Below, piece after piece: positions 1-64,000 of a stretch of 64,000 nt of DNA. Made by a program: the position numbers and the translations under genes. The notes beneath the pieces are model-generated. The model was not told the DNA's origin. It worked only from the letters and a program-made list of their open reading frames with translations, and did no database searches. The stretch covers positions 806,001 to 870,000 of the forward strand of contig CM052834.1 in the NCBI GenBank assembly GCA_028534125.1. Direction: 5' to 3'. This DNA is from Lama glama. Taxonomy: Eukaryota. The number at the start of each line of letters is the position of its first letter. The stretch's first letter is position 1.

Positions 1-639
1 AGATAAAAATAAAGTCACACCAAGCAGAAGATGAGATGCCTCTCCCGCCCTGCCCGCCTTCCTGCAACAGATCAACTTGTTTTCTTACTTTGCATTTGCC
101 ATTTTTAGAAGGGGGTTGAAAGTAAAATCCAAGACTCCACTGGAGAGAAGGCGAGCCCAGCAGCCTCCCTGCCGCCTCCCGGGCACGCGGCACACACCAC
201 GCTCGCAGCACCTGGCGCACGCTGCGGGGCCCCCGGCACGTGAAGGGCCGGCTCGCAAACCTTCCGACTTCGGTTGCAAATCGGACTGGGGGACTGGAGG
301 GGTCTTGGCTCCTGAAAGAGCAAGGCAGTTGCCATTTTAAGGAAATGCATGAGAGTCTTTCAGGAGACCTCTGCCTGAAACGCAGGAAAATCTGGCTGCC
401 TCGGCCCCATGAGACCCTCTCAGATTCCAAATGTCCTTCCCCAGGTGGTTTCCAGAGATGAGCTTTCTGAAGCTCAAGACAGTTATTTTAAACTCCAGTT
501 CCTTAAATTGTATTTCTAAGATATAATTAGGGATTCCTCACTCTTGGCCAGACAACTGCTAATAAGGCCCTGTGTACGCGGTGGTGCGAGCCAGTGAAAC
601 CCGCCAAACACCCACAGCGGCCCCGAGGCACGCCTGCCT

Positions 640-738
640 CTCTCTCCATCTCTGTGTCTCTCTGCCTCTGTGTCTTTCTGTCTCTCGCTCCCCATCTCTG
701 TCTCAGCCTGTCTCTCACACCCGTGCACACACACACGG
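640..738 (+). repeat. (TC/TG)-rich low-complexity tract ending in (CA)n
   Basis: ctctctccatctctgtgtctctctgcctctgtgtctttctgtctctc...cacacacacac. Confidence 0.7.
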
Positions 739-6385: not shown

Positions 6386-6592
6386 ATTTTTTTATTTAAT
6401 AATTTTTTTTAGAGTTTTGGCTTTTTTTAGTGGAAGTAGAGTTGATTACAACGCTGTGCTGGCTTCCGGTGTGCGGCAGACTGACTCAGTTATGCACACA
6501 TGTCTTCTTTTTCATTATGTTATTGAGCTTGTTACAGGTTACGAGAGACTGAATATAGTTCCCTGTGCTACCCAGTTGGACCCTGTTGTTTA
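6386..6592 (-). mobile_element. 5'-truncated L1 3' end (laurasiatherian/artiodactyl type)
   Basis: T-rich tail, then gaagtagagttgattacaa...tgaatatagttccctgtgct...ggaccctgttgttta, a typical antisense L1 3' UTR. Confidence 0.8.
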
Positions 6593-9500
6593 AATTTTTT
6601 TAAATCAATAGGAAACACAGACTGTGTCCGATTTCCTGGGGCACAGTTTGAACTTAAGTTTCACAAAACTTAGGATTTAACTGGGCACCTTCAGCGGTCA
6701 GTGAGCGGCTTCAGTGGACACAGACGCAGGGAGGCCGGGCGGGGGTCCACTCGAGGAAGAACGCACGCCCCCCTGAGTGTGGAATCTACCTTGCCAGCAG
6801 AAGCAGCCAGCAGCCTGCGGGGACTCACACGTCCACCTCCCCGTCCCAGCAGCTACAGCTCCCACCTCGGGCCAGGGGTCCCGGGAGGAAGGATGCGTTG
6901 GGCCAGCCGCTACCTGGTGGGGAGGCGGCTCGGGACAGTGCGCCGGGCAGGGGCTGCCGACCTAGACAGGGCCAGACAGGCTTTGCCAGGCAGCTCCAGC
7001 CCATCCACCATGAACCAGAAGGCAACTGCAGATGGGTCCTGTGCTGCTCGAATCTCTAGGTGCCTGGGTCTTCCCCGTACCCCACCCACCTTGCTCCTAT
7101 CAGCTCTGGTCGGGTTGGCCCATGTGACGTTTGAAACACCCAGGAAGAGCTGTCTGCAGGGAGCCTGGGCCTCCAGGATGCTAAACCGGCCGCCGTCGCT
7201 GCCTCCCGGGACCGCGCTGCCCACCCCGGCAGCCCCCGCCCCTTCCACGTCGCTCTCTCACCGGGGCCGTGGGCCCCCTTCTCTTGCATTTCACCGTGAA
7301 TGTGTGTACGTCCCGGCTGGAGCTGCGAAGGCCTTCCTTCCAAAAGTGGTCCAAGCCAGAGGGGGTCTGAAACAGCAGTCCCACATTCCTCACTCGCAAA
7401 GATGTTACTTTCCCTCGTGACTCCCAGCCGCTGTGCAGCGTGTCGGGAACCTCGATGCCACTTACAATCTCTGAGTCTGAAACACCAGCTTGACAGTGAA
7501 CGGAAGAGCAGTTTGGAAGTTGGAGACCGTCTATAAATTACTTCTGTGTGAAAACTCAAATCATCTCACCGCTGGAACTCTGTTCAGGCTACACTGAGGG
7601 CATCTTGCCAGGAAGACCAGGTTGTCCTTTATCAGTTTATCCCTGAGAAGGACACAGGGTCCTGGACTCACTAATTCCCACAGAGAAGGTGGTTAACTGG
7701 CAAAGCTCAGGGAGGAAGCTGGATGCACGCAAGGAGCTTCCCAGACCAGCAGGAGGACTCCGGGCCCCGTCCTGGGACCAGCTTCTGGGCCACCAGCAGC
7801 AGCACGTGCACAAGCCAGTCTCAGGAGTCGCCACGGGGCAGCACGCAACCTCTGGCGCAGACGCCACGAGAAGCCGCACGCCCAGAGAAGGCCCCGCTCC
7901 ACCAGGGTCCGCTCTGCCAGTCACACTTGCCGGGGAGGGCACACCTGGGGATGTGGCGTGGGGGCTCCCCAGTCCGAAACCTCTGCCCCAGGTCCCCGGG
8001 AACTTGGACCCGTGGCCTCAGAGGTCTCTCCCCTCGGGAGCCGGGAGCGCCGCTGACACTGACCACAGCGGAGGGTGGACACAGGGCCCCCGCCCCACGC
8101 TTCCCGCAGAAGCCGGCCCCTCCCTCTGGCACCCACGGCACTCGCCGTGCCCACGACCAGAAGGCATTTTAATAGAAAGCAATTGTTTTTCCTCGTGACA
8201 ACAATGTTTTCCAAAGGACCCTGTCTCTGAAACAGCAGAGCTCTGAAGCTGCAGGACGGGGGAGCTGGAAACGCCCTTCGGCACGTCTGACCCCGCCTTT
8301 TCCGCAGGAGAAACGGGGCCCCGAGACCTGCCCAAGTGGCGGCGGCTCAGCCCCAGACCCAGGTGCTTCCTGCTGCCTGGGGCGGGGGCAGGTCTGGGTC
8401 TGGCCCGCCCTCTGCCCTCCGGCCGTGCGGTCAGGGCGGCCTGGGAAGCCTGCCGAGGCTCTGGGACACCAGCAGCGCCCCTCGTGACCAGTCACCCGGA
8501 CCAGCTGACGGTGGTGGGCACAGCCACGGAGCCACGGCTCCTGCCACCATCACCGCCGTGGCCAGGGGCGTTCAGACACACACGTCTCTCCTCCCACGAA
8601 GGGACGGACACTCACAGGACAGCGTCAGAACATGGTTTCCGTAACTCGAAGCTTCTCTACCAGGTTCCACTGTCACCAGAAAGACATCCGGTCAGCCTGC
8701 CGTTGGGAACAAAGCGTCCCAGTGTCCCCACAGGACCTTCGTTTGGGAAGCCATCCCACCTTCTAGGGGATGGCTTTTCAGGTGTCCCAGGGCAGGACGC
8801 GGGCTAGACCCTGACGGACGCGCAGCTGCTGGAGGGCAGGAAACCCAGGGACGCCTCCCCCGGGTGTGTGATGAATAAGCGAAGGAATGAATGGAGCGCC
8901 CAGCGGAGGCCAATGAACATCTGCAACACTGCCAAAAGATTGCTTAAAAACAACGGCCTCGGGACAGCTAAGCCCTGGACGGAGGCCGCACAACATGGCA
9001 GGGGGTGGGGGTGCCCTTCCCGCCTCCGCTCGGCCCCACCGAGCAGACACACCTGGGAGTGACGAGACGCGCCCTCGGCGACGCCGGTGGCGGCAGACTC
9101 ACCGCGCCCCTTCCTACAGTGTTGTGAAACCCTCTGTTGAAGTCGATTGGCAATGTTTAAACAGCACGTCGCACAGAAGTACGCTGTTACTGATTAGGCA
9201 TGAGGAGCAAGGCAGTGCCATTTCATGCTAACGCAGCACACACGGAAAGCCCTCACCTTTCCAAACACACCTTCAAGGTTTCACATAATCTCGTTTTAGT
9301 GTAGGAACGGTGAGCGCTAGTCCCTCAGCGGAGAAACGCCGGGCACGGCCCAGAAGACGCTTCCCCTGGGCTCGGGAAGTGCCGGTGCCCGACCTTGAGG
9401 ACTCCGACTCTGACCTTGATCAAGGCAGTGGCGCCGGACGCCCTTTGCTGTCTGGGAGCACGGATCGGAAAGGATGCGCGTTCCCCACCTGGAGGCGCGC

Positions 9501-11375: not shown

Positions 11376-11399
11376 CCCCGAGACCCCTTCATCCCCGTG

Positions 11400-11460
11400 A
11401 CCCGGCGCCCAGCATGGGGCCCGGCACACAGTAGGTGCTCAGTGAATCCTCCTGCAATAA
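11400..11460 (+). mobile_element. L2 3' end fragment
   Basis: cccagcatggggcccggcacacagtaggtgctcagtgaat. Confidence 0.65.
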
Positions 11461-14264
11461 AAAACACACGACCTCACTGGACACAGCCACCCCCATCTCG
11501 AAAATGGTAAAACCAGGCTGCACAGGATCAGACGACCCTCTGGAGGTGCCCACGGCCGGGAAGCGTGAGAGGAGGACCCAGGCCGCCTGCTCCAAAGCCT
11601 CTCAGCTCGCCTGACCGCCTTCCTCTCGGCGAAACGCCCCAGGATGCAGCACGTGGCCAGGGGAGCGCTGCCACGCCAGCTCCGAGAGCTCGCCCGCTGT
11701 GGCCACGCGCCACGCGCCAGGTCTAGCCCTGAGAAGGGGAAACCTACGGGACCCCAAACTCCTCCGAGCAGAGGCGCTCCCCAGCCCTCCCCCCGCTGCC
11801 TCATCCTGGGACAGTTTGCTTCCCGAGAAGGGAGAGGGCTCCGTGCCAGGCCTGCTGGCCTTCCTGGCAGATGCGGCTCCGGGCCTGGGTGCCCCAGCGC
11901 CCTGCCCGGCCCCGGCCTTGTCGCCAGCCCCCCCGCGCCCTGCCAGGAGAGGGGCGCTCTCCCTCCGGTGTGCCGGTGTGCCGGGCAAGGCGTCTGTCTC
12001 CGCGCGCACACACCCCGGGGCACACCTTGTCCTCAGCGTGGGCTCCACTCCTCCGTCCCTTACCACGTGCTCCACGTGTGGCAGATCTCCCGGAGGAGAC
12101 GGGGACTGGGAGACGTGCCCCCATCCCAGCAGACATGAACACAGGCTCAAGGAAGGTCTGCGTGGGGTGGGGCGGACCCCCGACGAAACTCAGAGCCCAG
12201 CTGACAGGGCAGAGAGAGGGAGGGCCCTGAGGACCCGGCGTGAGTGGCTCTCCCTTGCCCATCAGACGAAGAGAAACTACGAACGTTCCACTAGAGCAGA
12301 GGAGGGTGAGGAGCTGCACCTCCCAGGAGGGGAGCCCGCCACGGGTGCAGGCGGTCTGGGGCTGAAGGAGCCGCAGGAGGAAGGGCAGGGCTGCCCTGGC
12401 AGAGGGCTCGTGTCAGAGTGCGGAGCAAGGGCACTCTGTCCGCTACAGGACACCCGTCGTGACCGTGACTGTGACGCTCTGTCCTTGTGGACCCCCCCCG
12501 CCGCCGACGTCCGCCTCTCCCGCCGGCCGTCCTTGTCCCTGGAGCCCTTCTGGTTTGTGGATTCCAGGCTGGAGCCAGCACTCCAGCAGCACCGCACCCA
12601 CCGCAGAACCACTCAGTACACAAACCAGAGGGGCCCGGGTGGACGTCGGGAGCCCACGGCCCGGAGCTCCCGCACCAGCTCCACACCAAGCACTCGGCGG
12701 GGCGGCGACCTCAGAAGCCCTTCCGACCGACGGGGGTCTCTGTGGGCCTGAGGTGCCGACCGCCTGAGAGGTCTGTGGTTTTCCTCTTCACCAGACAACG
12801 CGCTTGGTCAGGGATCTGGCCAAAACCAACAGTTCGCTAACCAACCAGCGGCAGGCCCGGGGGCTCTGCGGGTCCGTGGTAACGCACCACCCCCTTACTT
12901 CCGTGCTGCACCCCTCGGTCGGGGCAGGACGGCGGAGAGACGCAAGAACAGGCAGATTGTAGGAAGAGACTTCGGGTTCCAAGTCCTCAGACATCCACGC
13001 CCATGCTCCTTTAACCCATTCCACGGGCACTAGGCTGTGCCAGCCACAGAAGAGACCCCTCGTGTCCACATGCTCGGCCTCCTCCCAGAACCCCGGGAAC
13101 CCATCCGGAACGGAGCACACCCCCGGGCCCTTCTGAGAACCGGGCACCAGCCAACCCTCCCTGGTGGGAGCCAGGGCATGAAGGAAGCTGCGGGGTCGGC
13201 CCGCTGCCCAGCGTCAATGGGCGTTGCCAGGAGCTGAGACGCGTTCGCAGGCTTTCGTGACAGCCCGGAAGCAGCCCGAACCCCAGGCCCGGCGCCCTAG
13301 CACCAGAGCCGGCTGCAGAGTGCATTCTAACTCACCCTCGTCGAGCCTCTGGGACCTGGGACGTCTGCAGACCCCACGCCCCCAGCATCAACCCTATGAG
13401 GCTCACACCTTCCCACAGGCATTTTTAAGGAAAACAGTGACCGTGTGCAATCCCCAGAGACCAGTAAGCATGGAAGCACCCCATCCCTTCCCACCCCACC
13501 AGCCCTGGTTCCCGGAGTCGCCACCTGGGACGCGGGTCCGTCTCCCACCCGCTACGTCCTCGGGTTTCAGCAGCCCCCTCAGACGGTCATCCATCTGAAA
13601 GGCCGGCCACTCTTAGTAAGAAGCAGGGAGCCTCTTTCTAAGCCATGATGTCCCTCTGGAGACTCTGCTTCCCTTATTCCTTTTTTCCTGCAAACCTACA
13701 GCTGGAGGAGAACCTTGCCATGTGCAGGTGCCCAGCCTCCCCCACCCCTCACCCCCCGGCTGCATCTCCCTTCACAAGAGGCCGAGGGAAAGATCTCAGA
13801 GGTCACAGGGAGCCCCGAACTAACTGCACGGGATGATGAGAAGGGGTGCACGCAAGCTTTGAGGCCAGGTCTGCCTGAACTCGGGTCAGTTTAATTTTTT
13901 TTTTATTTAAAAAGTCACTGTTTAAGCTGAGGTTGAGTCTCTCTCTGCCTGCCTTCACTGCAGACACGAACCCAGAGGAGAGGATGAGAGGGGAACAGCT
14001 ACTTGACAGGCGTGCAGGCTGCCTGCATCTCATCCTCTCCTGGTTGCTAAGCACCCAGAAACCCATAAGCAGCCTGTAACGGGTGCAGTCACAGGCAAAG
14101 ACAGATGCTCGTCCACAAAAAGGCTCTCTGGATGCCGAGAAGGCAGCCCACTGGAAAAGGTGTGCTCCAAGCTGCTTGGGAAAGTCTGGGTGGAAAGGAA
14201 AAGGTGCCCAGCCTAAGCTGTCAGGCGCCTCTTGGTTAAGCCAAACCTTGCTGTGGCTAAAGTG

Positions 14265-17869: not shown

Positions 17870-18000
17870 TCGGCTCCTTCCACCCTCACCACACCCCGCA
17901 AGGTGGGAGCTGTGGTTGGGCCCATTCTGCTGACCGGGACACGGAGGCCCAGCAAGGTTAAGTCACTTCCCGAGGTCACAAAGCTCGTCACTGGCTGAGT
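17870..18000 (-). mobile_element. MIR SINE fragment
   Basis: cccattctgctgaccgggacacggaggcccagcaaggttaagtcacttcccgaggtcaca. Confidence 0.65.
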
Positions 18001-20559
18001 GGGAGTGGGGTGGGAGCGGGGCCCGAGGACGGGCCCACGGGTGGAGGCATCTCCCGAGCTGGCCGTGGATGGAGTGGTGGCCCACGGCGGGGTCACCGTG
18101 TGTCCCGGTTTGCCCAGGCCTGCTGTCCGCACGTAGTGACTCACACAGCCCCCTTCTTTCTCAAATGTGCCCTAGTTTGGATGATAAATGATACGGTCCC
18201 TTAATTATAAGCTTCTCCAGGGTAAGAAAAGCACATGATAGCCAATTAATTAATACTTGTTGAATAAAAGGGTAATGACTTTCTTTAACGGTGACGGACC
18301 TCCTGGGGAACGGAGAGATGACCAAGTAGCAGTCTCCGCGGTTCCCTTGGCAACGCTTGGATCCTGTGACTCACGGCCCTTCCCTACGAGTCCCCTCAGA
18401 GCTGCTCTGCCCGCCGACAGCCCGGGGCCTCCCACAGCATCGTGGGGCCCGTGAGGACCCCCATTCACCCCCAGACAGAGGCTGGCCCCCGGTCCTCGGC
18501 ATCCCAGCCCCTAAACTGGGCACCTCCCGCAGGCCCAGCTCCCCATCCGCTCCGCTGTCACTGCACTTCTGGGCGGGGGGGCCCCGGCCCCAGCCCTGGC
18601 CCCGCCCCACACGCTCCCTCCAAGACAAGGTGCACCACCGGCCAGGCTGCCCGGTTTCCCCCATTCCGGCGCGGTGTGGCATCCGCCCAACTCCAGCCCT
18701 GCGGGTGCCCCTCTCCCTCCTGCAGCAGGGAAGCAACGCTGTCTCTGGTTCTGTCACCTCGTCTGCCTGAGGAGACACGAGCTGCCCCGTGGGGCAGGGC
18801 ACACGGACGGGAGGCTTGGGCCTTGTCTTCAGTCTGAAGTCATCTCCCCGACCTCGTGCCCTCCTGAGGCGCAGGTGGTCGGCGCTGTAGACACAGGTCT
18901 TAATGGCTGCACTTAGAGGAAAGCATAAAGCTGTGAGATCTCATCGTCCTCATCAGTAACATTAATTTTAAAGCTGAGATAATGCGTTCCTGACTCATCA
19001 CAGCCACATGGCATTTAGCGGACAAGCACATCGCTGCTTAATCTGGGGACCAGGAGCTCCTGGAGATGTGATGTGCACACCGGCCCCTGCCAGGGCCAGG
19101 GCTCTCGGCGCCCCGAACACTTAAGACGACCTTTGCCCAGACCTGCAACAAGGGGCTCGCAGCCCGGATGCGGGGCCCCAGGGAGGCCTTTGCCGGGCCT
19201 CTCCCTCTGGTCACCCGCACATCCCAGTGTCTGGAATAACCGCCCTCATCGAGCCGTCCACCCACCAGCCGCTCTCCTCCACGAGCATTGGCTTCTCTGT
19301 GCTACTTCCCACTTCAGCCCCCGAGAGGCGCTCAGATTGCACCTGCGCAGGACCGACGGGGCAGGAGGAGGGGCAGCAGAGGGAACCAAGACCCTGAGTG
19401 ACGCCCCCCCAGTCGGGTGTCGGGGGGCCCTGTACAGAGCGCCTCCGCCGGGCGCTCTCTCCTGACGCCGCCCCGCCGCCCACCGCCCCGCGGGAGCTGA
19501 GCTGGGGCTGTGTGGCCAGGGCCCCGTCCTCCTCAGCGTCCCCTTTGCAAGCTGGCTGCAGTGGGGGCCGCTGAGGACCGAGGGCCAGCCTCCAGGGCCA
19601 ACTCGCCGGCTCCCGGGGAAGCTGTGTCCCGTCACACACCCTCAGACTCCGGCCGCGTGCGACAGGACGCCTCGGCCTGACCAGCCGTGCTGCCCGGGCC
19701 CGGCCACCAGACCTGCATCACACCTCCCCCGTCTGGGCCACTCTGGGGGGAGACGTGCTCAGGAACCCGGCCCCAACTTGATGCCACCACCGTGAACGGG
19801 CCCCGCGCGGCCCGAGTCACACCTGCCCCCCAACCCCAACCTCCAACAGGCGTCGGCCCCACTCCCGCCGGAAAGCCAGGCCTTTGAGCACGGTGGCCCC
19901 AGCCCAGTGGCCAGGCCTAGAACTACCCCCTGCTGGCCACTCGCCCACGTGCAATCCGCCCAGCTCAACCCAGCCCAGCCTCAGAGGGCCCCTGCCCACT
20001 GGAGGCAGGAGTGGGGAGAGCACAACCGAGGCCCCTCCGCCCCTGGCACCCCGAGCACCCCCGGACCGGGGCCAGGAGTCTCTGCCCCAGCTCCCGGCGC
20101 TTACGTTGGAACATGGTGTCTTGAAGAGGGTGACTCACTGCAGCTGCGAGCACTGACTGATGACTCTGATCCTCCTGAAGCCACTGGCTCACAAGGGTCT
20201 CCCTCCATCTGGGCCGAGACCCAGCCCCGCGGCCAACATGCCAGGAGAGCGGCTCCCCTTCCCGGCGGCCACGCTGAGCCCCCATCTCCCCTGGTCTGAA
20301 ATGGACTTTTCCCTCTAAATACGGGTGTCTGACCGAAAACAACGCCAGCTCAATCAAAAGAGAGGGCTCGTCCCCGTGTCAGGAAGGACACCCCATTCCC
20401 GGAAGTCCTGCACACGCTGAGGCCACGTTAGAAAGGATGAGACTGAGCAAAACTCCCGCTGCCCGAAAGTGCAAAGAACCTTTAGTGACTCAGCCCTGGC
20501 CAGGCTCAAATCGGGGCCGAAAGTCCCAGGGCTAACTGCCCGCCAAGGCTGGACCCGGG

Positions 20560-20650
20560 ATTGTCATCTCCTGAGCATCTCCCGTGTGCCAAGCGCTGGG
20601 TGAGCCCTGGGGACAAAAGAGTGAGAGAACAAACAGGCGTCGAACCTGCC
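20560..20650 (-). mobile_element. L2 fragment
   Basis: ctgagcatctcccgtgtgccaagcgctgggtgagccctggggacaaaagagtga. Confidence 0.55.
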
Positions 20651-25199: not shown

Positions 25200-25345
25200 T
25201 TCACGGGCGCGCCGACCTCCTTGGGAAGCTGGCATTACCGGCTCTAGTTCTGATGAGAAAAGTGGTGTTTAACGAGGTCACCTGCTCAAGGTCACACATC
25301 AGGTACGTGGCGCAACTAGGACTCCAGCCCAGGCGGGTCTAACCC
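25200..25345 (-). mobile_element. MIR SINE fragment
   Basis: tctgatgagaaaagtg...gaggtcacctgctcaaggtcacacatcaggtacgtggc...ccaggcgggtctaac. Confidence 0.6.
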
Positions 25346-27334
25346 CACATGTCTCCGCAACATTCCCTGTTGTCCCCGGGGCTTCGCTCTGAGATGGGAC
25401 GTGCTTGTCTTTATGTCACACACGGCCAGGTCACAGATGCCGGGGTCAGCCGAAGGCACTCAGCAGACTGCAACACGGGGCGTGCCTGCGGCCACAGCAA
25501 GGAGACTCTCTGGACGAACTGATCATTCGTCCGAGAACTTTACGTTTGTCACAGGTCTTGGGGACCATCAGCGCAACCCCCGCGTCTACGGGGAAGGATG
25601 GGACCCAGGGTGGAGGGTTTGTCCCCGGATCTCCACTTCTCGGATAAACCTCCGTCACGTCTCATCAGAAAGACTGGCCAGCACGCACTCGTGCCCCCAC
25701 GTCCAGGCGTGCGGAGGCAGAGGGGCGACAGGCAGACCCCGTGTCTGGCGCCAGAGGATGCAGTCAGGGCGACTGAGCACGAAGCCATCCAAAAACCACA
25801 GGGGTATTTCATGAGGCACCGACGTGACTGACGGACGGCAGGGCCACGTGCCTCCTGGGGTGGAGACAGGGGCGGGCAGCAGGGTCTTGCAGGGACTGGC
25901 AAAGGGAAGACGATGGACCTCCGGCGCTGGACGGAGGGAGGAACCGAGCGGCCTGGGCGAACAGACAAACCTGAGGGAGGACGTGCCCCTGGCGTCTGCT
26001 GGGCCCAGAGACAGGAACGTTTCACTCCAGCCGGTTCCGGGCCCAGAGCCTGAGGGGCCCGCCTGGCAGGCAGGGGGCCCCAGGGATGTTTTCCATCAGC
26101 CATACTTAGCCCTGCTTTGTACCAGGGCCATGACCCCGACAAGCCTCATCGTCACTGGAATGCCGTCCAAGTCAAGGGAAACGCAGGAGACGCCAGAGCT
26201 GTTGCGACATCGGTCCAAAGTCGGGGTGGGGCGGCCTGACTCAGCGGGGAAACTCACTCACCAGCCTCTCCTGGCACCTGGGCCAGACTCAGCCGATTCT
26301 GACCCCTTTTCCTGTGAACCTTCTCCAAAGCCGAAAGCCACTTTTCTGCCCCCTTGGGAGACAGAAGAGGCTGCACAGGACACCCCACACAGAGGCGTCG
26401 CGGATTCCGGACGGCGCCCGATGTGGCTCTGCAGACCCGCCCGCCCGGCCGTGGCCCCCCTGCATCAGGCTGCTCGCCTCCAGTGGGGACACTCGGACCA
26501 CCGCTGGCTACGGTGCTTCTGAGGCTCAAGTGCCACACGAGGAGATTCTCTGCAAAGTTTAAAGCATCACAGACGTCAGCGGTCAGACTTCTAAAAGGGA
26601 GACACGTCCACGGGTCTTCCAGACACGTGGGCAAGCGAGGGACGGAAGTTTTCCTGGTTTTAAGGGAGACGCTCGAGGAGGCCGAGCTTCGTGCTGGTTC
26701 TCAGGACAGCTGCCCGCAGACGCACCCGGACAGGGACGCTCCATCTGGCACGGACACCAGCTCGGGGCCCGGCCGGCCCTGCTGAGCACAACCCCCCCTC
26801 ACCCCCCGAGGCCCCGCACGCGGCCCGCAGTGAGCCGGCCTCCAGCCTCGTCTCTCCCGCTGGCCCTCTCCGTCCCTCCTCTGCTCACTGCAGGGCACTT
26901 CCGCCCCTCTTCCCACCCCTTCCCTGGGCTCCCGACAGGACGGGCAGCTGTGCTCAGGGACAGTCAACGGGCAAGGCTAACGGACCGCAAAGCAGGCTCT
27001 CTGCTTCCAGTTTCCGTTTTGTGAGGACTCCCCCTCCAACGGCGAACTCTCCTTGTCCATTTCCGCCAACTTTCTCTCGTGCTCCCAGCGTCTCGGCGGA
27101 GGGCACGTGAGCACCCTCGTCTCGGCCGCACAGACGGGCTCTCAGTCTGCTCCTCAGAGCCAGCTGGTCTGGGCTCAGCGGGAGGAAACAAGGGGTCCCG
27201 GTGGGAAGGGGCTTATCCGGGCTTGCCGGGCTGTGAAGAAAGAGGTCACCCTCTCGCCTGGGTCTCAGTCTGGAAGTAAGGTCCCCTCCGTGAGAGTCCA
27301 GAACGGGAAAGGTGGCTGGGAAGGCTGGCAACTC

Positions 27335-36080: not shown

Positions 36081-39000
36081 TGCACACCCCAGAGTCGCAG
36101 AGTGCCCGTAAAGACAAGAGCTCCTGGCACAGGACGCCTGCTCCGGAATTAAAAGCGCGGTGACCGTTATCAGTCTGATCAAAGGAGGAGGTGGGTCAGA
36201 ACGTCTGGACTGCAACGCGTCCCGGAAACCAGAGCCCTGGCCACGCGGCCCGGTTAAATACGCAAACGTGGGCACGGGCTTGGCACGTGGAAGCCTCGCG
36301 CGGGGCCGGGAGACAAGCTCCGATGCTGCCTTGCCCATCGGTGGGTCGGTGTTGCCGTGCAGGTCTTTTCAACGCGGTATTTGAGTACAAGGGCAGAGCC
36401 GATGCTTCCAAAGAGACTGTCAGGCGGGCGGGGCTGCCTGTCACGAGATTTACCGGGGGTTTCTGGGGCTGTGTGGACAACGGGTTTGCTGCGACGTGAC
36501 ACATTTGGGCTGTTTCCCGCCTCTATCTCCACTCCAAAGTCCCTGCAGAGACTGCGATTTCTTTATGACTTGATGGTGCTAATTCCTTCAGAAAGTTTCA
36601 AAAGGCCTGACAGGTTTCATACGAGCACATATGTGTGTGTGACTGTAATAGTAAATAAAAAGCCCCAGAAGTCGCACAAACCTCTGCCCCGCCCGGCGCC
36701 GCCCGGCTGTCCCAGACGTGCTGACGGCACGCCGCCTTCCGGGGGCCCCGCACGGTGACAGCGGGAATCGGAGGGGTCGGGGACTGAGGCCACGGAAACC
36801 CGGGTGTCAGGGCGAGTCTCACGGAACGGCTCTCCTGGGACAGAGCCTGCCGCCTGTTTGATCGCCCACAGACGGCCCCAGAACGGCCTGGGAAGGGAGA
36901 GGGCCCGCGCGCTTTGTAAGTCACGCCCCCCGCCCCCTGCCGGCGGGCTTGGTTTCGGAACCCCTCTCCCGGGAGAGGCGCGCCCTCCCCTCCTCCCGCT
37001 CCTGCCGGGCCCCTCAGCGCGTCCGGGCCCCCCCTCGGCCTCAGCCTCCGGCCTCCTCTCGACAGCCGGTCGGTGGAAGGAAGCTAACGGCCACCAGGAA
37101 GTGCTGACGGCACGCAGCGTTGGTGGGTCCCCGACACTAGCCAAGCCGAGCGTCTGCTCTGCCGTATTTGGTCGCCTGAGGAAGCTGTCGACGACGCTCG
37201 TGTCGTGTGAACGTCGGGGGACACGCTGTCTGGGAGGGGCCGGGCTGGACGGCGCCCCGACTCCAACTGCCATTTCCTCCCAGGTCCGCCCGATCTCTTG
37301 GAACTCAGCCAAACGGCTCAGTTCCTTTGGAGCTTCTGAAACCCAAACAGAGGCACCTCAGTGCCTCGGGGCCGCCTCCCCATCTCCGGGAGCCTAGTTC
37401 GCTTCCACAGATGCCGCCGTGGTCCTGAGCTGTGCAGGCCTGCAGCGGGAGGGCATGGAGCACGCAGGACTCCAGGGGAGTGAGCATGCTCCGACCCAGG
37501 GGGCACGTCGGCCCGCGCGCTCCGCCCAGGTCTGGGTGGACTCGGCTGCCCTCTCCCACGTCCCCGACGCCGGCCCCACGGGGGTCACATTAGTCCCTAG
37601 ACCTTAACCTTGAATGACTCAGCAGAGCCTCAGGAGAGTCACCCAAAAGCCCGAGAAGGAGGGAAGACTGACAAGGCTGACGTGATGGGAGGCACGTGCC
37701 CTCCCCACCGGCAGGCAGGCAGACGCAGCGTCGAGAGCATCTCTTCCAGCTTCACGGGAAATAGGATTATTAAACCCATCAGCGAGCAGAACCAGGGACT
37801 GGCTTTCCAGACGGTTGGTTCTGCTGCTGTCTGGACCCTGCCCTTCCTCCAGGGCAACGGCCTCTGACCCCCGCCCTCCTGCATCCTCCGCCAGGGCAAG
37901 GAGCTGGTCGCCGTTGTCATCCTTCCCTGTGACGCCCTGACTCCCCGCCGACCTGCCTGCCCCCTGCCTCGCACGCTGCTCTGCGAGCGTTTTATTACGG
38001 GTGATTGCGAGGAGGTGACTCTGCCGGTTCCGACGACGAGAAAGGGGGGAGATTCTCGGCGGCCCCTCCCCCCCACGACCTTGGGGCGATTCCCTCATCC
38101 TGCCGAGTCAGATCTACCTACACCCCCGAGGGCAGGGACCCCAAGCCACTGTGTTGGGTCCACACGCGCCCACGATGCCCAGCGGCGGAGCCTCAGGTGG
38201 TCACGATGTGTCTCTCCCGCTGCCCCAGCCCGCGGAGGCATTCGGAGGCCCTCGTAAAAGCAACGGTACTTTCTGTCTGAAAAGTACTGCACAGTTTTCA
38301 GGGAGCTTTCAGAAACAGTCTCTCTGATGAGCTGACTCCCCTCCCGGAAAGCCCAGCGTTCAGTTCAGTGTGACTCGCGCCAAGTCACCGGTGGAGGCGA
38401 GGCTGGGGAGACCGCCAGCCCCAGCCTGCACCGCCTCCTCCAGGCAGCGCAGCCTCCCAGACTCTGCAATGCCAGGGGGGCCTTCGGGCGAATTCGGATG
38501 GGAAACACCATCGCAGGGAAACCCACGCATGCCCCACGTTTACGGTCGTGGACCCTCACCCAGCGCTCCCCATGACGTCCCCGTGGCCCGGTGTCCCAGC
38601 CCACCGCCTGGCACGTGGCGGCGTCCACAGACGGTCATCGAACGAGTGGAGGATAAAAAAGTGAGTGAAGCAAACTGACAAGTGCAGGACGAGGTGTGCC
38701 GTGACCACGAGACGTCCAACCTCAGGAATCCACTGGTTTCCGAAAAGCTGACCTGACTTACAGAATCGCACGTGTTTGAGATAAAACAGCTTTAACATAA
38801 GCAAAGGGCCACCAGAGTAAACAGAGAGTTTTATGATTTTGCTCCAAGAGGCCAAGACCAAGATTCCTACTCTGGAGAAAAGGAAGAGAAAACATTCAGG
38901 CAGAAAACCCTCTTGAGTCCAGAAGGATAAAAATGACCATAAAAATTGTTTTTACAAAAATAAACAAGCTCTACTAAAAACGGCTGGAGACGCGGGGAGC

Positions 39001-41919
39001 GAAAACGACTCCGGCAATCAGAGAGTTTCAGCTCGCCCTGCGAGGTGAGGCAGCACGTCGGCCCGGCAGAGGGACCCGCTTCTGAGCGCAGAGACTGGCT
39101 GCGGGCACAGTCTCTCCAGAGCAGCGCTGCCCTCCTGGCCCAACGTGGCAGAGAGGCGACCAGTCTGCCTCCGGGACCCTGTCCTTGCTCCTGGCGGCAG
39201 GTGCGCCTGCCCTCGAGCAGTCGCAACCCACCCCTTCCCCTCCCTCCTTGAACCCGGCAAGTCTCAAGTTTCACGACCCGGGGCCCTTCACCTGGAGCGA
39301 GAGTTCCACCACCTACCCTGGGACGTCTTCTCGTCACAGTCTAAGGGACAGGATGACAGCCTCCCTCCCCCAACAACGGGATTCCGCGTCGCGGTTCTCT
39401 CGGTAGGCCACGTGAAACACTCATTTAAAACGAACGCAGTCACGCCAACGTAAGTGTGAGTAATTTAGAGGCCAGTCACAGTTGAGTAATTACTTTTTAA
39501 CTGGGCGCTGGTGCCTCTGCCCCTGAGAAGGACGCCCCGTGAGGGCGTCCGCGGTGAGCACCGCGGCCCACACGCAGCAGGTGTCAGTGGGGATTTGCTG
39601 ACAAACGCGCGCAGGTCGGTCGCTCCAAGGTCGTTCCTGGGCTGAACCCTGAGGACTCACGTCTCTGTGTCAGAATTGCACCTTTTGCAGGAACCATGTC
39701 TCCTGTTTTCTCACCCAGACTCTCTCGACTGTCGGCCTCACCTGAGAGCCACTTCTCAGAGGAAAACCTCGTTTACTCTCCCAGCTCACACGATTCACCT
39801 GCTGCCTTCCGGGCTCCACCAACCACGTGGGGATCTCGGAGCCCTGCGTTCAGCCCCTGCCCTGCCCGTGTCTCAGCCCCGTTTCCTCCGCGCCGGTGGA
39901 GGGGCGCGTTTGCCCCGTACGCCCGCCCCGTGCTGGCCACAGGCGACTGCGGGGCTCCGCTCAGCTGCGTGCGGGCGGGCAGCAAACCGGCCCCCAAGGG
40001 TCAAACGCAGTGGTTACAAATTTGTAGTCAAACGTCCTCAAGCAGCTTCAAAACTGAAGACACAGCCGTCCACGTAGACAGCACGTCCTGCTGGGCGCTG
40101 GGTGGGGTGGGCGAGAAGTCAGGGAGCTTCAGGACAAGCATCACCCCCCCACCGCCCGCAAGAGCCAGGAACTCCCACGTCACGAGGCCCCTCGACAGAG
40201 TCCCTCAACCTGAAAGGGAGCACGGGGGACACAGGCCTTTTCCGGATCCTCCTCCTTGTCCGTCGAGCCCTGAAACTAGCTTGTGCGCTGAACACGCCCG
40301 CGGGTCCTCCCACTGGAAAGCGGGCTCCGGTGCCGTCAGCCCGGAGAGGCCGCTGCGGAGGGACGGACACTCAGGCCCCGCATGGGATGGCAGGCGGTTC
40401 CCTCAGGAACCTGCGTGTGGACAAGCTGCCAGGTGACGGTGGGGGGCTGCGGCTCCGAGACCACGCGTGCAGAGCGGTCAGGACTGCGGCCCCGAGGAGC
40501 CTGGCCTCCGTGACCCCCAGGCGTCCTCACGGGACCCCGAGAAGTGATGCTGTGACCGCACCTGCCAGGCTTTCCTCTCCGACGGGATCTGCCCAGGCCC
40601 AGCAAGTGCCACTCCTGGGACGGTGAGAGGGAGCGATGACCGTCACCCCCTCTGTTCACCTTCCGGCACTCTCTGGGACACGTCCTGCTCCCCGGGCTGA
40701 TCAGCAGGGACTGCCCCCCACCCCATTCAGAGCAGACCCCGACTCCCCGCGGCCTGTGCCTGGGTCCCTCCTCCCAGCCTCCTCGCCTGCAGCTCCAGAC
40801 CTGGCGGCCTCCGCGTGGCCCGTGGAGGTGGGACGTGGGGGGCCAGCTGCTGCTCACTGTCCCGGGGGATGGGGAGAGGGGCTAGCCCGCCCGGCACACG
40901 CGTCCTCTGAGCCGTGTCCACGCGCGGCCCTCTGCCGGCACCCGCAGCTCTGCGGTCTGTGCACCTGGGCCCGCGAGGGCCTGACCCAGCGGGAGTCCGG
41001 CCGGTGGAAGGCTGTGCAGAGCCGCAACGCCCGACAGCCGCCCTCCTTGTCCAGGCCACACCCTGTTTCCACGGACTCAGAGACTCAGGCCGGTTCCGGC
41101 CCTGACAGGCCGCCCAGAGCGCAGACAGACAAGCTCGTGTTTCCAACAGTCCCGTGTGTTTGAGGCGGGCCAGGCAGGTGGCAGGACCGCACCTGCCCCA
41201 CCCCCGTGCTGGGAGGGGGACCGAGAGGAGGGCCGGGCCAGCTGCGCCGGGGCCCCCACACGAGGGGGCGGGCCGGGCCCCACGGGAAGTAAGTTGGCCC
41301 GACGCCCCACCCGCCTCTGCAGCCACACGGCTCCCATCCGGCCTGGAAAGGTCAAGAACTAAATCTGGATTTCAGCCTGCGCTCTCATCCCCAAGTTATC
41401 TTGAGAGGAGGCCGAGGGAAAGTTCACAGGGGAACATGCCAGGAGGGGTCAGCGCATGCGTCTGCTCCAGTGACGACAGCAGTGACCGTCGCCGTGAGAA
41501 CTGGGCTCCATTCGCAGCCGCTGGCCTCCCCGCAGCGCCCTCTCCTCTGGGCCCGACGCTGCCGACGGGGTTACCACCCCTGCTTCACAGCCCAGGAGCC
41601 TCGAGTCTAGGAGGCGGGGTGACATCCAGTCCTGATGGAGCTGGAACCCGGGACAATGAGCCCAGCCCAGGGATGTCGCCGCTGTCAGAATCCCCCGTGC
41701 TTTGAGCATCACGGCCCCGCGCACCTGCCCCCGCGCACCCGCCCCAGCGCCTTCCAGGCGGCACCAGTGTCTCACACACACAACGGCCCCCGCAGTCACT
41801 GGCGGAGAGACCGACGTGGTTGCCCCACACACACAGGGCGAGGCCCAGTGACTGAAGCAAATGCCCCCCTTGCAGGCCCTGGGGGGCCACGGGGCACTAA
41901 GGCAGGGACTGGGAGGCAC

Positions 41920-42000
41920 ACCTGGGCTGTGCGGCCTGGTCAAGCTAATTCACTTCTCTGTGCCTCACTCTCCTCCCCCTGAAATGAAAGGCCTCCAACG
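41920..42000 (+). mobile_element. MIR SINE fragment
   Basis: gctgtgcggcctggtcaagctaattcacttctctgtgcctcactctcctcccctgaaatg. Confidence 0.6.
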
Positions 42001-43534: not shown

Positions 43535-43640
43535 CTCCACTCGCTCAACAAGCGTTTATCGAGGGCCTGACGAGCACCAGTCCCCGCAGGAGGCACCGGG
43601 TCCGAGCAGCCGTCCAGAGGGATACATCCTCTGCCCTCAA
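43535..43640 (-). mobile_element. L2 3' end fragment
   Basis: cactcgctcaacaagcgtttatcgagggcc, a diverged form of cattcattcaacaaatatttattgagcacc. Confidence 0.55.
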
Positions 43641-45680: not shown

Positions 45681-45913
45681 TTTCTCTTCTTCTTCTTTTT
45701 TTTTTTTTTTAATTGAAGGACAGTCAGTTACAATGTGTCGGTTTCCGGTGCACAGCGCAACGTCCCAGCCGTGGGTCTACATACATACATTCGTCTTCAT
45801 ATTCTTTTCCTTTAAAGGCTACAAGACACTGAGTAGAGCTCCCTGTGCTGTGCAGAAGAAACCCGCCTTTCATCTGTTTTGTATACAGCGGTTAACCTTT
45901 GCAAATCTCAAAC
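45681..45913 (-). mobile_element. 5'-truncated L1 3' end, camelid/cetartiodactyl-type
   Basis: Poly-T followed by aattgaaggacagtcagttacaatgtgtc...ccctgtgctgtgcagaagaaa...gcaaatctcaaac, resembling the recalled antisense 3' UTR of camelid L1. Confidence 0.8.
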
Positions 45914-47827
45914 ACGGCCCCTTCTTATTCAAACAAAAGCTATGCAAGCCGCGGGGGCGGGGGGGGCGGGTTCTCAAGCTTCATTGCAGGGGCTCGTAAA
46001 TGACCTGGGGACCACGTTCACGTGACGAGGCGAGTTTCAGTCAAGGCTCAGTAAACAGCCATCTGCACCTCCCGTTTCAGGGCCCTCAAGGCTGCAGACG
46101 TGGTCAGTGTCCCCTCCTCCCACGCTGAGCCCACGCTCAGCTCTCCTCACTGTCCAGCCTTGAGCTGCCAGAGAGACAGGTGTGAACCACCAGCCAGTGC
46201 CTCCTTTACGCTTAAACTCTGTTCTCTTAGCTTCTAGGACGCGGCTCTCCCCGATTTTCCCCTGACTGTCAGGCCAAGCGTCCCTGGGGCCGGGCGCGCC
46301 CCTCCCCTCACCTGCCCCGCCTCTCCCGCTGCACCTGCCGCAGGTGCTCGGCGCCAGGCCCGGGGCTCTTTCCACCCCCCCACCCCGTCTCTCCCCAGCA
46401 CAGCTGTCTCCAAGCTCCTGCCCCGCACCTGCCCCGTAGGACAAATCCACCTGCATTTGTAGGAGCTCCTCACTTAACCCCAAACTGCCCCCCTCGTCCC
46501 CTCCCCCTTAAATGTGACCTTTCTCCCCAAGTCTTTCTTCTGGCTGACGGCACCTACTGACCCACACTGCCCCCCAACAGGAGGAATTTTAGAAACTCAG
46601 CCTCCTGGGCCACGCCCTGGAACTCCAAACCCGAACCAGAGCTTCCAAAACACTGGCGTCTGTGCGGTTCAAGCTCTCCAGGCATTTACAACAGCCAAGA
46701 AGGGTCGGGAGTCACTGCCCTGCCCAGCGGCCGCGCTGGTACAGAGGATACCGGCCCAGCGTGGAGCTGGGGACAGAAGTCTAGGAACAATCTACACAGA
46801 AAGGGAATGAAAAATCGTGGAAGTGGCTGAGCTCACCAAGGGAGACAACGGAAAACCAGAAGGAGACGGGCAGGACAGAGCCCAGTCACAGATCCGCAGA
46901 CACAGGAAGGGGAGTCAGAGAGACGAGGCAGACCGGGAGCCAACTGTGCCCCAACCAAGGCGTGGGGGTCTTCCAAGGGGCACCGGACAACAGCTGTGCG
47001 GGGGGGGTCCTGACCACACTGCTGGCGCCCCTGCTCTCCTGCCCCATCAGCCAGCGTGGCTTCTGCTTGGCTGTTCGTTTCAGGGCTTTTCCTAGAGACC
47101 GTGGCCTTCCAGTCGGGGCCCTCACTGCCGCAGGGAAGGCACGGCCCAGGGGGTGCAGAAGATGAAGTCTGACGGTGGCTTCTGAGGTCCAGGGCAAAGG
47201 TCAGGTCACAGACGAGTCTGGAAGACCCCAGAGGAGTTTGCTGGGTGACCGCGACGCCACAAAGATCCTAAGACGGACTCAGGAGCACCAGTGAGAAGCA
47301 AACATGCGTGAGACCCCGGGTGCGTCCTGGAATCCGCAGCCCATCCCGCCCCCGCGGCCCCAGAGATGACCCAGAGAGCCTGACTGGGGAACAGGAGACC
47401 ACGCCGTCTGCACGCGCAGAGTCCAAGGCCTCCCGGGGGGTCCAGCGGGCGTGGAGCATGCCAAGGGGTGTCTGCCCCCCGGGCCAGTGACGCGGTGGCC
47501 CCGGGGAGACCCCAGAAGGAGCCACAAGCCCAGGGGACGGGCCGAGGCTGACACCACCGGGCCCAGCGGGGCCTCAGGTCAGATGCTATGTTCTGTTAGA
47601 GAAAGAAAAACAAGTCAGGTTTCTCCTCCTCCCGAGTTTGCCAGCTGAGACCCGTGTCTGCTGCACCCCGCGGACGGGGGCCGGGGCTCCGAGGGGGGAG
47701 CAGAGAGGAGCCGGCCGAGGAGGCGAAGGCAGACCCCGCCTCAGAAATGTCAGACTCAAAGCACGACCCTGTGTGTGTGCACACATCCCCGAAAGGCAGT
47801 TCAGGGACGGAGCCAGCGGAGCTGGGA

Positions 47828-49849: not shown

Positions 49850-49955
49850 CAGGTTGGAATTGGTGGCGTTGGAGTCGTCTTCTGGGAAGGGGATGTAGAT
49901 GGCTAAGGCCACGCAATTGGCAAAAATCGTCAGCAAAATGATGATTTCAAATGGC
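49850..49955 (-). CDS. CACNA1C: CACNA1C coding exon 3 (106 nt): domain I S1 segment and S1-S2 loop
   Basis: Translates (K)[35 protein letters not shown]. Acceptor CCCCTTCCGCAG|G at 49956/49955, donor CTG|GTAAGT at 49850/49849. Joins exon 2 in frame (AA|G = Lys). Confidence 0.98.
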
Positions 49956-53760
<3,805 letters not shown>

Positions 53761-57397: not shown

Positions 57398-57524
57398 ACA
57401 CACACACACACGTGCACGCACACACGCACATGTACACACATGCATGCACATGCACACATGTGCATGCTCACGTGCACACACACGTACACGTGCACGCGCA
57501 TGTGCGCACACGTATGCGCACATG
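57398..57524 (+). repeat. Degenerate (CA)n alternating purine-pyrimidine tract
   Basis: acacacacacacgtgcacgcacacacgcacatgtacacacatgcatgc...tgcgcacatg. Confidence 0.9.
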
Positions 57525-60250: not shown

Positions 60251-63200
60251 GTCTATGCGCAGAGGGAGTCGCGATGGCAGGCCCAGACGAGGAGGGAGAA
60301 GCAGTGAGAAACGGGGGACAGCGCTGGATCCCACTTGCGAGGGAACTGAAGACAGCGATCGAGGCCTGCTTCAGAGCTGCTGGGTGGGCGGGTTTTCTGA
60401 TCGGGAAATAACCACCCAGGCAGAAAGACGTATTTCAAAGCACAAGAGAGTCTAAGATCCAACAAACAACACAGAAGCGAAAAGTCACTTTTCAGGGCTA
60501 ATACTCTCAACAAATGAATGGGACACTAATTTCCCCAGTGGGCAGACGGGGAAGCTGACATTTCCCCCCAGACAAGGGGGCCCACGGGAGCCCCAGGACA
60601 TCCCAGCTGGATGGAGGCCCCTCCCCAGACCGAGCACCCAGAGGGTCCACCGCCCCCTTCTCTTACCTGAGCTGTTTCCGCACCATTGCCAACAGCATCC
60701 CCTCGGTCTCTCTGCCCTCCTCATCCCAAACCCTCTACAAACACAGCTGATGGGAGACTGAGACGCTCAGAACGGGTCCACGGCCGTGGAAGTCAAATCT
60801 CCACAACAAAGAGACCAGGGTGAGGGACTGCGGACAGCTGTGGCCACCCCCTCAACTCTGGGGTCGGGCGCTGCCTTAATAGCCCGCCTGTCTACGCTCC
60901 ATCCCACCTCTCTGGGGCGGGGCAAAGCAGAGACCCCGGCGCACCTCAGAAGCCCAGGCCAATGGCAAGGGGACCAGCAATCACACCCCGGCGATCCAGC
61001 GAACTCAGCCTGTCCCCTGCTCTCCACGGAGAGCACATGGGGAGGAAGCCTGGGAGGGACCCCCAGAAGCAGACCAGCCTCCTGCTGCAGAGGACCCTCA
61101 CCCGAAGGCCGACCCCTCGTGGTACTCAGGGTCACGCTGACCTCAGAGAGCAGGAGCAGGAGCAGGAGCACAGCCGGGAAGCAGACACAGACCCGCACGA
61201 GCAGCCAAGAGCAACGGGGAGGAAAGCCTTCTTCCGCTGACTTCCCGGCAGGGGTGGCGGTGGGGGAGCCTGTCCCCACCTGCTGATGGCAAACCTGAGT
61301 CGCAAGGCCTCGCGGAGGGCTCGCTCAAGCTGACTGGGAGTCAGCCTTTCGCTCATCGAGGGTCAATGCCAAGCGGCCACGGCAGCAAAGGGCAGACCAG
61401 GCCCCGACGGAGGTCGGATCCAGCTAGAAAAATGGGGAATCCCCCAGGTGGCTGGGGTCTGGGGACAGGCGCGGCGCAGAGAGCGGGAGGAGGGTCACAG
61501 AGGCCCCGAGCAGCGGCGACGGGGCCCAGACACCAGCTCCCGCTGCCCTTCAGTGGGCCAGCGCCCAAGGACCTCACCCCCACGCAGGGCCCTCCTCCGG
61601 CCCTCCCAACGACCCAGGAGCCCCTTGCGGGCAGGAACCAGCCCTGTTGGCTCAGAAACCCTCGCACATGCTTGTCACCCAGGAGGTGCTCAAAGCATGG
61701 CGGCTGCAGGGAAGTTCTGCAGAATTTCTGTTCAGGCTTCACTGATTTCTGAGCAGAAGTTCACAGGGAAGATGTTATTCGATAACGCGGATCAGTGTGT
61801 CTGCCAAGTGGCAGACGTGTTTATGTCCTCGTTCAGTGGTTGCTGCCTGTCCCCACCGGAAAGGAAGCCCAGGAAACAGGCACCCTCGTCCACCTCGTCC
61901 ACCCAACTCACTACTCGGTCCCCAGCCCACAACGCCTGCGTGGGACGCGCGCACACGAGAGGCGTGTTGAGTGGATGAATGAGCGGATGTCGCGGAAGGT
62001 AACTGTCCCGCGGCCTTGTTCCCCTTCACATTCACCACTTAGACTCTGGCCCCGTGATACCAAGGGGTTTGCTGCTCTGGACCCATTTTATTGCTGGAAA
62101 AACAGAGACACAAGGTTTCCAAACATCAGAACCGAACACCGGAGTCAGGGCTGCTTTGGGAGGAGAGTTTTTAGCAGATTCAGTGGCCAGGACCTCCTTC
62201 CTCCTCACCACCGGGGAGGGCGGGGCACAGGACAGCCCAGTCCCCTCACGGACACCCGCCTGCCGGCCTACTTCACCCACTGAGGGGGGCAGGGCACCTT
62301 CGGGAACCAGCAGTAACTCCCCGACTCCATCCCATGCGGGCCAGCGCCCAGCCCCATGGCCACGGCTCTGACTCCGTGGAAGAGCGGGTGCCACCCCGCT
62401 GAGGCCCAGACTCAGACCCTCGCGGCTGATGGCCCTCCCGATCCCCCGGAGAGAAGGTCTGACTGCGCCCCACCGGGGACGGGGAGGCTGAGCTCTGGAA
62501 CCCTGCCCAGGCGGCGGGAGCAGGAGCCGACAGACCCGGTCGGCAGAGCGATGCAGCACTGCCCAGAGCCCCCAGGCCTGAGTCGTGCCGCCGTCGGACC
62601 ACCAGCCCTTCGGAGAAGTGGGAGCAGAGCCGGGCGCGGGGGGAGCACGCGGCTTTCCTCCAGCCACACGGCTCTCGCCATCAGAACCCGGGCCCCCGAC
62701 CCTACGACCGCATTCACTGCACCGGCCTCCCCGCCGAGCTCCGAGTGCCACAGCTTCCCCGGGGCTCGGTCTGCTCGTCTGCAGAACAGAGGACAGCGCG
62801 TCCCTCCCAGGCCGGCCGTGGAGACGAGTGAGATTCTGCCTGTGGAAGCGCGGCTCAAATATGAAGCGCTGCCTAATAAGGACCACGCTCCTCGGGGCCC
62901 AAGGGAAAGTCCCAGTCTTCTGCGACGCGAAATAAAGCATGAAGCCTGTTTTACAGAAAACAGAAATCTTTTCCCCACAAGCACACCTCCTCGTTAAGCA
63001 ACCACCTCTTAAAAATCGCGGCGTCTCACACACAAAGATTAAGCGTGTCGCTGTGTGGAAGAGTGACTCTCCAGAGAATTCAGGACACGGAGAATTCCAG
63101 AGATTCCTGCAAACCAGGCTCCCTTTCCCAAGGCGCTGTGTCAGTGGAAGGCTCTGAAATTCTCCCATCGCCAGCGGGATGTGCTGGGGGCCGGGGGCCC

Positions 63201-64000
63201 CGCGCACGTTCACACACCGCACACACCGCACACACCAGCACACGCCCGGCAGCCTCTCCGGCCTCCTCCTGGACGCGGATCATCACCGCGGTGGGACAAA
63301 GCAGCACGTGGGCCCTGAACGTGACAGGCCACCCCACAAGCACGCTCCGCATAAGCACAGCGGTTCTTTCGTTTAGAAAAGTCAGTGCCTTTTGTCCCAT
63401 GAATCCTCACAAAACCAGACGGCCGGCAGGCGAGAAGATGGAAGGCGATGAAAAGTGAGCCCGCGGCCCTGAGGCGGCCGCTCCCCGGAAAGACTACGCT
63501 TCAGACAGACACGAAGCCACCGTGACTCCCCCAGAGTCTGGGGAAGAACTGGAAGTGGACGCGGCTGGGCTCCCGGCTCCGTCGCCCCTTGTCCTGGGCT
63601 CACGGGCAAATCGCTCTCGACTCCCTCGTCTTCAGAGTGAGAAGGCTGCGCCAGACGCCGTGATGCTCGGCTTCCAGAACCCTGTGGCCCGGGCCATCCC
63701 CGCCCCCGCTGGTCTAACCCCCCTCAGCCCCTGGGTGCCTGGGTCTCCTCCCCAGTGGCCCCGAGGACCAGGGCTGGCGGGGTGCAGCCCGACACCCACG
63801 CCCTCCGCTCGCCGGTCGGGTGCTCGGTCTGGGAGCGTGTGCCCCGCTGCCCCACGTGGCCTGGGCTGACAGAGCAGGTTCAGCTCCGGGGCCACGCAGC
63901 AGGAGGGCTAGCAGAGCACAACCTCGGCCCCCTCCTCTTCTGGTTGATTATCCCAGGGTCTTCCCAGGACGTCAGAGTCTCAACGTGGCTTAAGGGACGC

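Follow-up and report, generated by a model that had tools for sequence, protein, structure and literature searches.

The CACNA1C locus

We analysed a 64,000-nucleotide stretch of the Lama glama genome (the window), which covers positions 806001-870000 of C19 (contig CM052834.1), a 19.9 Mb scaffold. The window consists of two coding exons of CACNA1C on the minus strand, with CACNA1C intron making up the remainder. Repeat fossils in these introns have fixed A/T>G/C changes (W>S) at about 2.6 times and G/C>A/T changes (S>W) at about half the rate seen in chromosome interiors, and rare alleles in the window are AT-biased. The cause is very probably GC-biased gene conversion (gBGC) in meiotic recombination near the chromosome end. 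Changes of the W>W or S>S type are referred to as GC-neutral throughout.

The first exon (53411..53732, minus strand, presumably exon 2) codes for CaV1.2 residues 19-124. It differs from a solved CaV1.2 sequence at one of 106 aligned residues, N19 being read as S, and has 97% GC at third codon positions (GC3; 104/107 codons). The second exon (49850..49955, minus strand, presumably exon 3) codes for residues 125-159 and is identical at 35/35 of them. The two exons lie 3.5 kb apart and contrast in GC3, which is only 24/35 in the second. An assembly artefact is ruled out, as 77-97% of sampled words of 36001-45600 are present in 19 of 24 listed sequencing runs (8 studies). The sequence is common to four organisms that are close relatives.

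Base composition of the window and of other chromosome ends

The introns were described in the initial annotation as GC-rich and CpG-dense almost throughout, and this is what we found. The GC content of the window is 62.1% and its CpG observed/expected ratio (o/e) is 0.61 (63,079 non-N bases), with GC of 0.49-0.70 in every 1-kb bin, against mid-chromosome medians of 0.39 and 0.22 (25 samples of 10 kb). CpG-island thresholds are passed by 39 of 124 window tiles of 500 bases and by 5 of 493 mid-chromosome tiles. Inflation by tandem repeats was rejected as the cause: TRF returned 14 rows in the window, every one shorter than 90 bases.

The window is part of a GC- and CpG-rich block of about 0.5 Mb (C19 about 0.5-1.05 Mb, containing window positions 1..64000). 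GC in the block is mostly 0.55-0.64, with dips to 0.48. Outside it, GC is 52-54% at 1.8-4 Mb and 36-44% beyond 5.5 Mb; the first ~4 Mb of the scaffold is GC-rich and its far end AT-rich. The window is located 0.81-0.87 Mb from the scaffold start. The assembled tip (0-0.41 Mb, samples L031-L034) has 41-53% GC, for which gene content, rearrangement or scaffold ordering may be responsible.

The genome includes 36 scaffolds of 12-109 Mb among C1-C37. At 0.8 Mb from either end of the other scaffolds (71 samples of 10 kb), CpG o/e was at least 0.5 in 23/71 samples and GC at least 0.60 in 13/71, while neither value was reached in any of the 25 mid-chromosome samples. Only 4 of these 96 samples come within 10% of the CpG density of the window, and all four are from ends. 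The window is thus the high end of a genome-wide chromosome-end pattern: the effect is regional, common to other ends and not unique to the locus.

Ten samples, all near scaffold ends, combine a modest GC content (0.43-0.49) with a CpG o/e of 0.51-0.65: L196, L197 and L217 (C19 0.94-0.97 Mb), L099, L096, L122, L131, L135, L145 and L150. L1 copies in the C19 stretches of this kind show W>S:S>W counts of 12:0, 23:5, 38:7 and 12:4. Such stretches are probably AT-rich DNA early in GC gain and would be the best sites for measuring current gBGC. Conversely, three mid-chromosome samples, L162, L171 and L176 (C9, C25 and C31), have a GC content of 0.52-0.56 and a CpG o/e of just 0.20-0.25. These look to be old GC-rich DNA in decay, a natural control for the ends.

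Repeat copies in the window

Three repeat fragments had been put forward as examples of copies that differ from their consensus almost only by A/T to G/C, often creating CpG: L1 copies near 6.4 and 45.7 kb and an L2 copy near 43.5 kb. All three are present at these places and are W>S-shifted against consensuses built from this genome's own repeat copies. When the window was compared by BLAST with 1.39 Mb of sampled genome, just these two L1 pieces were recovered among common repeats; two further families, which we take to be MIR and L2, needed iterated hidden Markov models (HMMs). The family of the two L1 copies was identified as a LINE-1 3' end by a member in L031, which lies directly behind a frame matching residues 1166-1273 of human L1 ORF2p (E=3e-37), though Pfam gave no match. 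At least five subfamilies could be distinguished.

The L1 3' end fragment at 45700..45915 (minus strand) carries 31 W>S, 2 S>W and 2 GC-neutral changes in 180 sites, and has 8 CpG where its subfamily consensus has none. It differs from 26 reference copies of the same subfamily, which have 1-11 W>S and 0-6 S>W changes each (Fisher p=1e-4). Both S>W changes fall in a poorly aligned end, and the first alignment gave 33:0. The first reference set had been selected for its similarity to the GC-shifted copy, which biased it toward W>S. For the second set, 26 of 30 copies were kept after the query and three near-duplicate partners had been dropped; since it favours young copies, its 7.6-fold W>S ratio is an overstatement, and we prefer the position-sampled 2.6-fold. 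The older L1 3' end fragment at 6422..6607 (minus strand) has a W>S:S>W count of 14:0 in invariant columns, or 20:2 plus 7 W>W changes against its nearest subfamily. By W>S rate, the two window copies rank 6th and 9th among 90.

A shift of this kind could be an artefact of the consensus, if the window CpGs were ancestral and had been lost elsewhere, if the copies belonged to a GC-rich subfamily, or if RNA editing had preceded insertion. Majority consensuses do lose ancestral CpGs, and the family does have several subfamilies. However, each of the five CpG-making sites of the 45.7-kb L1 is uniformly TG or uniformly CA in the 26 reference copies, one CG at most excepted. Because the other copies have plain TG or CA there, the CpGs of this copy were gained and not retained, which refutes ancestral retention for it. 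No GC-rich sister subfamily was found among the 40 scored of 2165 candidates, the closest genome matches to the window L1 copy being just 77-83% identical. CpG-suspect columns were in any case excluded from the rate counts, and equal A>G and T>C rates together with raised W>S transversions are unlike adenosine-to-inosine editing. The probability of such an artefact is close to negligible.

Returning to the W>S shift itself, the third example, a presumed L2 3' tail fragment at 43538..43587, has 7 W>S and no S>W changes in a 26-base core. Its purine/pyrimidine code matches at 26/26 positions, which none of 200 shuffled windows achieved; taken by itself, its HMM score is weak (E=0.06), and as a seed the fragment gave no matches. 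Two other fragments that we take to be L2 show 9 W>S and 1 S>W (11390..11462) and 5 W>S and 4 S>W (20564..20628). Presumed MIR fragments lie at 17892..18006 (10 W>S, 3 S>W), 50988..51061 (6 and 3) and 25219..25347 (8 and 10, raw counts without bias), with three further short pieces at 11277, 41926 and 53898. Together, the six MIR copies have 32 W>S and 21 S>W changes. The description "almost only A/T to G/C" hence holds for the L1 copies, where the per-copy count gave a W>S excess and was neither balanced nor S>W-biased, and fails for the MIR copies.

Two more stretches, 29500-30400 and 31400-31950, look like strongly GC-shifted L1 remnants of great age; BLAST against the sample did not recover them. 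CA/TG microsatellites at 57398-57482, 31380-31420 and 47830-47875 are interrupted by A>G and T>C changes giving CG-containing units, and there is a 30-base tandem duplication at 48288-48350.

Substitution rates in the block and in the interior

In the main rate count, only columns invariant across subfamilies were used, CpG-suspect columns were removed and copies were grouped by position alone, in place of an earlier grouping by CpG o/e that was partly circular. The 26 L1 copies of the window and C19 0.5-1.05 Mb, compared with 42 interior copies, show W>S at 2.59, S>W at 0.53 and GC-neutral change at 0.90 times the interior rate. Given the last value, the block copies are neither of greater age nor more heavily mutated overall. 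For MIR (53 copies against 58 interior ones), the respective factors are 1.74, 0.56 and 0.94. A subfamily-wise count that keeps more columns left the direction unchanged (W>S 3.6 times higher, equilibrium GC content, GC*, 0.66 against 0.36).

Non-CpG GC* for L1 is 0.89 in the window (2 copies), 0.75 (0.70-0.79) nearby (24 copies), 0.56 at other ends (63 copies) and 0.39 (0.34-0.46) in the interior (42 copies). The difference between sites at 0.8 Mb from other ends and the interior (0.56 against 0.39) has p=9e-8 in the subfamily-wise count. The same order is seen for MIR (0.64 in the window, 0.64 nearby, 0.46 at other ends, 0.37 in the interior) and L2 (0.75, 0.56, 0.45 and 0.39). Among individual copies, local CpG o/e is correlated with the W>S rate (rho 0.46, n=110) and not with the GC-neutral rate (rho -0.06).

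The bias is strand-symmetric, with A>G at 0.159 (337/2120) and T>C at 0.172 (316/1832) on the plus strand (p=0.26). Transitions make up 76% of W>S changes in the block and 74% in the interior, so W>S transversions are raised too. Strand symmetry and raised transversions exclude RNA editing and transcription-strand effects, and a transcription-strand bias was rejected as the cause on the equality of A>G and T>C. As a separate observation, C outnumbers G and A outnumbers T on the plus strand in almost every 2-kb bin, a skew linked to transcription that is usual for genes on the minus strand.

Block-wide selection for high GC, acting on isochores or through chromatin or transcript effects, is compatible with the GC3 of exon 2. 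Weak directional selection and gBGC are expected from established theory to leave the same population-genetic trace, and the variant test described below does not separate them. What makes selection a very improbable cause is that the bias affects dead fragments (L1, MIR and L2) on either strand, differs greatly among copies that lie near one another (W>S:S>W from 3:6 to 52:7) and follows chromosome-end position.

Rare variants

Mutation and fixation were compared in a 5.25-kb stretch (36680..41930) covered by four sequencing runs, each with 10-24 letters differing from the assembly. The runs, from four organism labels, form five haplotypes with the assembly, and the minor allele was taken as derived. 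Of 40 listed sites, 37 were used, to which all the counts given here refer; 37796-37798 was omitted as one complex event. Six further variant rows stand outside these sites and, judged from per-run totals, include no A/T>G/C change. The three adjacent differences at 37796-37798 are common to 3/4 runs, leaving the assembly nearly alone, and 2/4 runs have a 14-base insertion at 37087.

There were 20 S>W, 2 W>S and 2 S>S singletons, and 13 of the 20 S>W singletons are CpG transitions. Doubletons, polarised in the same way among the five haplotypes, number 7 S>W and 2 W>S. A mutation bias with a GC* of 0.74 is rejected by the singleton counts (p=5e-6). New variation is thus AT-biased, which leaves biased fixation, or a process no longer active, as the source of the long-term GC gain. 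As substitutions and rare alleles are opposed within the same DNA, fixation bias can be separated from mutation bias, which makes this case unusually clean.

Locally GC-biased mutation, with new mutations in the block being mostly A/T to G/C, would yield the same long-term W>S excess in repeats. It would also suit the size of the W>S rise (2.6-fold), which exceeds the roughly 2-fold rise expected under constant gBGC given the drop in S>W. The singletons are opposed to it and are compatible only with a mutation bias that acted in the past and has stopped. We regard this explanation as very unlikely next to gBGC.

Gain and decay of CpG

That the changes "often" create CpG proved to be an overstatement: only 5 of the 31 W>S changes in the 45.7-kb L1 do so. 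CpG-making transitions in L1 have no higher rate than the remaining W>S transitions (0.195 and 0.185 in the window, 0.085 and 0.163 in neighbouring copies). CpG gain is therefore secondary, a by-product of GC gain.

Reduced germline methylation could in principle explain the locus in the opposite order, with CpGs kept without deamination and GC-richness following. In its favour, the CpG o/e of the window exceeds the 0.37-0.50 obtained in simulation, and rare alleles show an approximately 6-fold CpG excess, below the roughly 10-fold required for the interior o/e of 0.22. Yet the share of CpG transitions among the S>W singletons indicates that CpGs still decay, as methylation predicts. S>W singletons occur at 13/786 CpG and 7/2621 other G/C sites, a 6.2-fold difference, so that CpG is hypermutable here, unlike in a germline-unmethylated CpG island. 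Moreover, 26 of the 31 W>S changes at 45.7 kb create no CpG, and interior rates with CpG decay set to zero lead to a simulated equilibrium GC of just 0.39. As the cause of the GC-richness, reduced methylation is extremely unlikely, though part of the CpG excess may be due to it. The CpG accumulation brought about by gBGC is likely increased by partial hypomethylation or by a slower decay of CpG in GC-rich DNA.

Timing, strength and equilibrium

Splitting the MIR record at the time of L1 insertion gives a GC* of 0.76 since insertion and 0.50 before it in the block (0.40-0.60, an optimistic interval, as sites and not copies were resampled), compared with 0.39 and 0.35 in the interior. The L1 period corresponds to about one third of the MIR period. 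One L1 copy of the youngest subfamily (C19 0.6 Mb) has a W>S:S>W count of 26:3, while the other such copy (0.53 Mb) has 3:6. The initial annotation called the process fairly recent. This is right in relative terms, since the bias is stronger after L1 insertion, but part of the GC-richness predates the L1s. When the measured rates are applied, a start at 55% GC reaches 60%, from which it follows that the block had a high GC content to begin with and rose by several points.

A GC* of 0.74 corresponds to an average gBGC strength (B) of about 1.5 above the interior. In a context simulation with the measured rates and 6-10 times faster decay of CpG, the equilibrium GC is 0.63-0.65 nearby and 0.34-0.35 in the interior. 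By this model, the GC of the window is matched and near equilibrium.

GC-biased gene conversion as the probable cause

In the proposed mechanism, recombination near the chromosome end would repair A/T:G/C mismatches toward G/C. G/C alleles in heterozygotes would thereby be favoured and would reach fixation more often everywhere in the DNA, also in dead repeats and at synonymous sites (such as those of exon 2). High local recombination and conversion as its agent are inferred from the position near a scaffold end and from published correlations: GC* is correlated with the crossover rate and with telomere distance (PMC2346554), and gBGC is known to act in short strong episodes (PMC4510005). The process would act in local episodes and would still be active today. 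The attribution to gBGC near a chromosome end, made already in the initial annotation, is well supported by raised W>S and lowered S>W at flat GC-neutral rates, by the equal behaviour of strands and of transitions and transversions, and by the AT-biased rare alleles.

Several results weigh against this interpretation or restrict it. In the subfamily-wise count, S>W is not lowered (0.099 against 0.095) and GC-neutral change is 1.4 times higher; the L2 drop in S>W is also weaker (0.83 times, 9 copies). The over-dispersion of W>S, a possible hint of episodes, is seen among interior copies as well. The variant set is small (37 sites, five haplotypes), minor-allele polarised and drawn from a single region, and its non-CpG singletons alone are 7:2, with p=0.025 against a GC* of 0.74 and p=0.06 against 0.64. 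The variant data fit ongoing and stopped gBGC alike. The simulated CpG o/e falls below the observed 0.61. Finally, the first 0.5 Mb of C19 is less GC-rich (41-56%) than the block, and no telomere array was found in its first 10 kb, so the bias is not at its maximum at the assembled tip.

Comparison with known systems

Rising GC* and CpG density toward telomeres are established in mammals (PMC2346554, PMC2441465, PMC6636035, PMC8336415), and the locus is a strong, well-supported instance of a known process; as a single locus, it is ordinary in kind. As in primates (Duret and Arndt, 2008, PMC2346554), the W>S rate and GC* rise near chromosome ends in non-coding DNA including introns. In human, however, GC* averages 0.37 and the GC content of GC-rich regions is declining, whereas here the non-CpG GC* is about 0.75 over approximately 0.5 Mb, and the simulated full equilibrium (0.63-0.65) equals or slightly exceeds the present 0.62. 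The methods also differ, as we used repeat consensuses spanning tens of My and that study used primate trios.

A rough episodic fit to our data, with B of about 4 for about half of the time, falls inside the range of hotspot gBGC (Glemin et al., 2015, PMC4510005). The human genome-wide mean B of 0.27-0.43 in that work was derived from allele frequencies, while our value of about 1.5 is relative to the interior and derived from substitutions. Gerbils (Pracana et al., 2020, PMC7403616) likewise have a large W>S-skewed block with extreme GC3 (73-100% in the gerbil high-GC region, 97% in exon 2 here). Their blocks are more extreme and all mutational categories are reported as accelerated in them, unlike in the llama block, where GC-neutral change stands at 0.90-0.94 of the interior rate (higher in the one count mentioned above) and the protein has hardly changed.

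In birds, isochores were found to be reinforced where the karyotype is stable (Mugal et al., 2013, PMC3684855), and in mammals CpG-island density increases with the number of chromosomes and as telomeres are approached (Han et al., 2008, PMC2441465). The llama shares with these systems many chromosomes, GC- and CpG-rich ends and a stable karyotype, that of camelids having been stable for more than 11 My (PMC13751797), though the link to the karyotype is drawn by analogy. Our literature search, which covered neither supplements nor most subscription journals, found no camelid study of chromosome-end GC bias, and a search for CACNA1C together with gBGC gave no related match. The main text of PMC11161765 does not mention camelids.

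We tentatively propose, with somewhat less than even confidence, that camelid chromosome ends have been under sustained gBGC which intensified in the last third of placental history and was strong enough to create and maintain methylated introns half a megabase long, with 62-64% GC and CpG-island-like density. Isochores would then be reinforced and not eroded, as in birds, since with a stable karyotype of many chromosomes the DNA at recombining ends would stay the same. At the chromosome ends of this lineage, CpG-island calls made from sequence and accelerated-evolution signals driven by W>S changes are probably misleading. If the genome-wide proposal is true, camelids would be large-bodied mammals suitable for testing the stable-karyotype hypothesis of isochore reinforcement.

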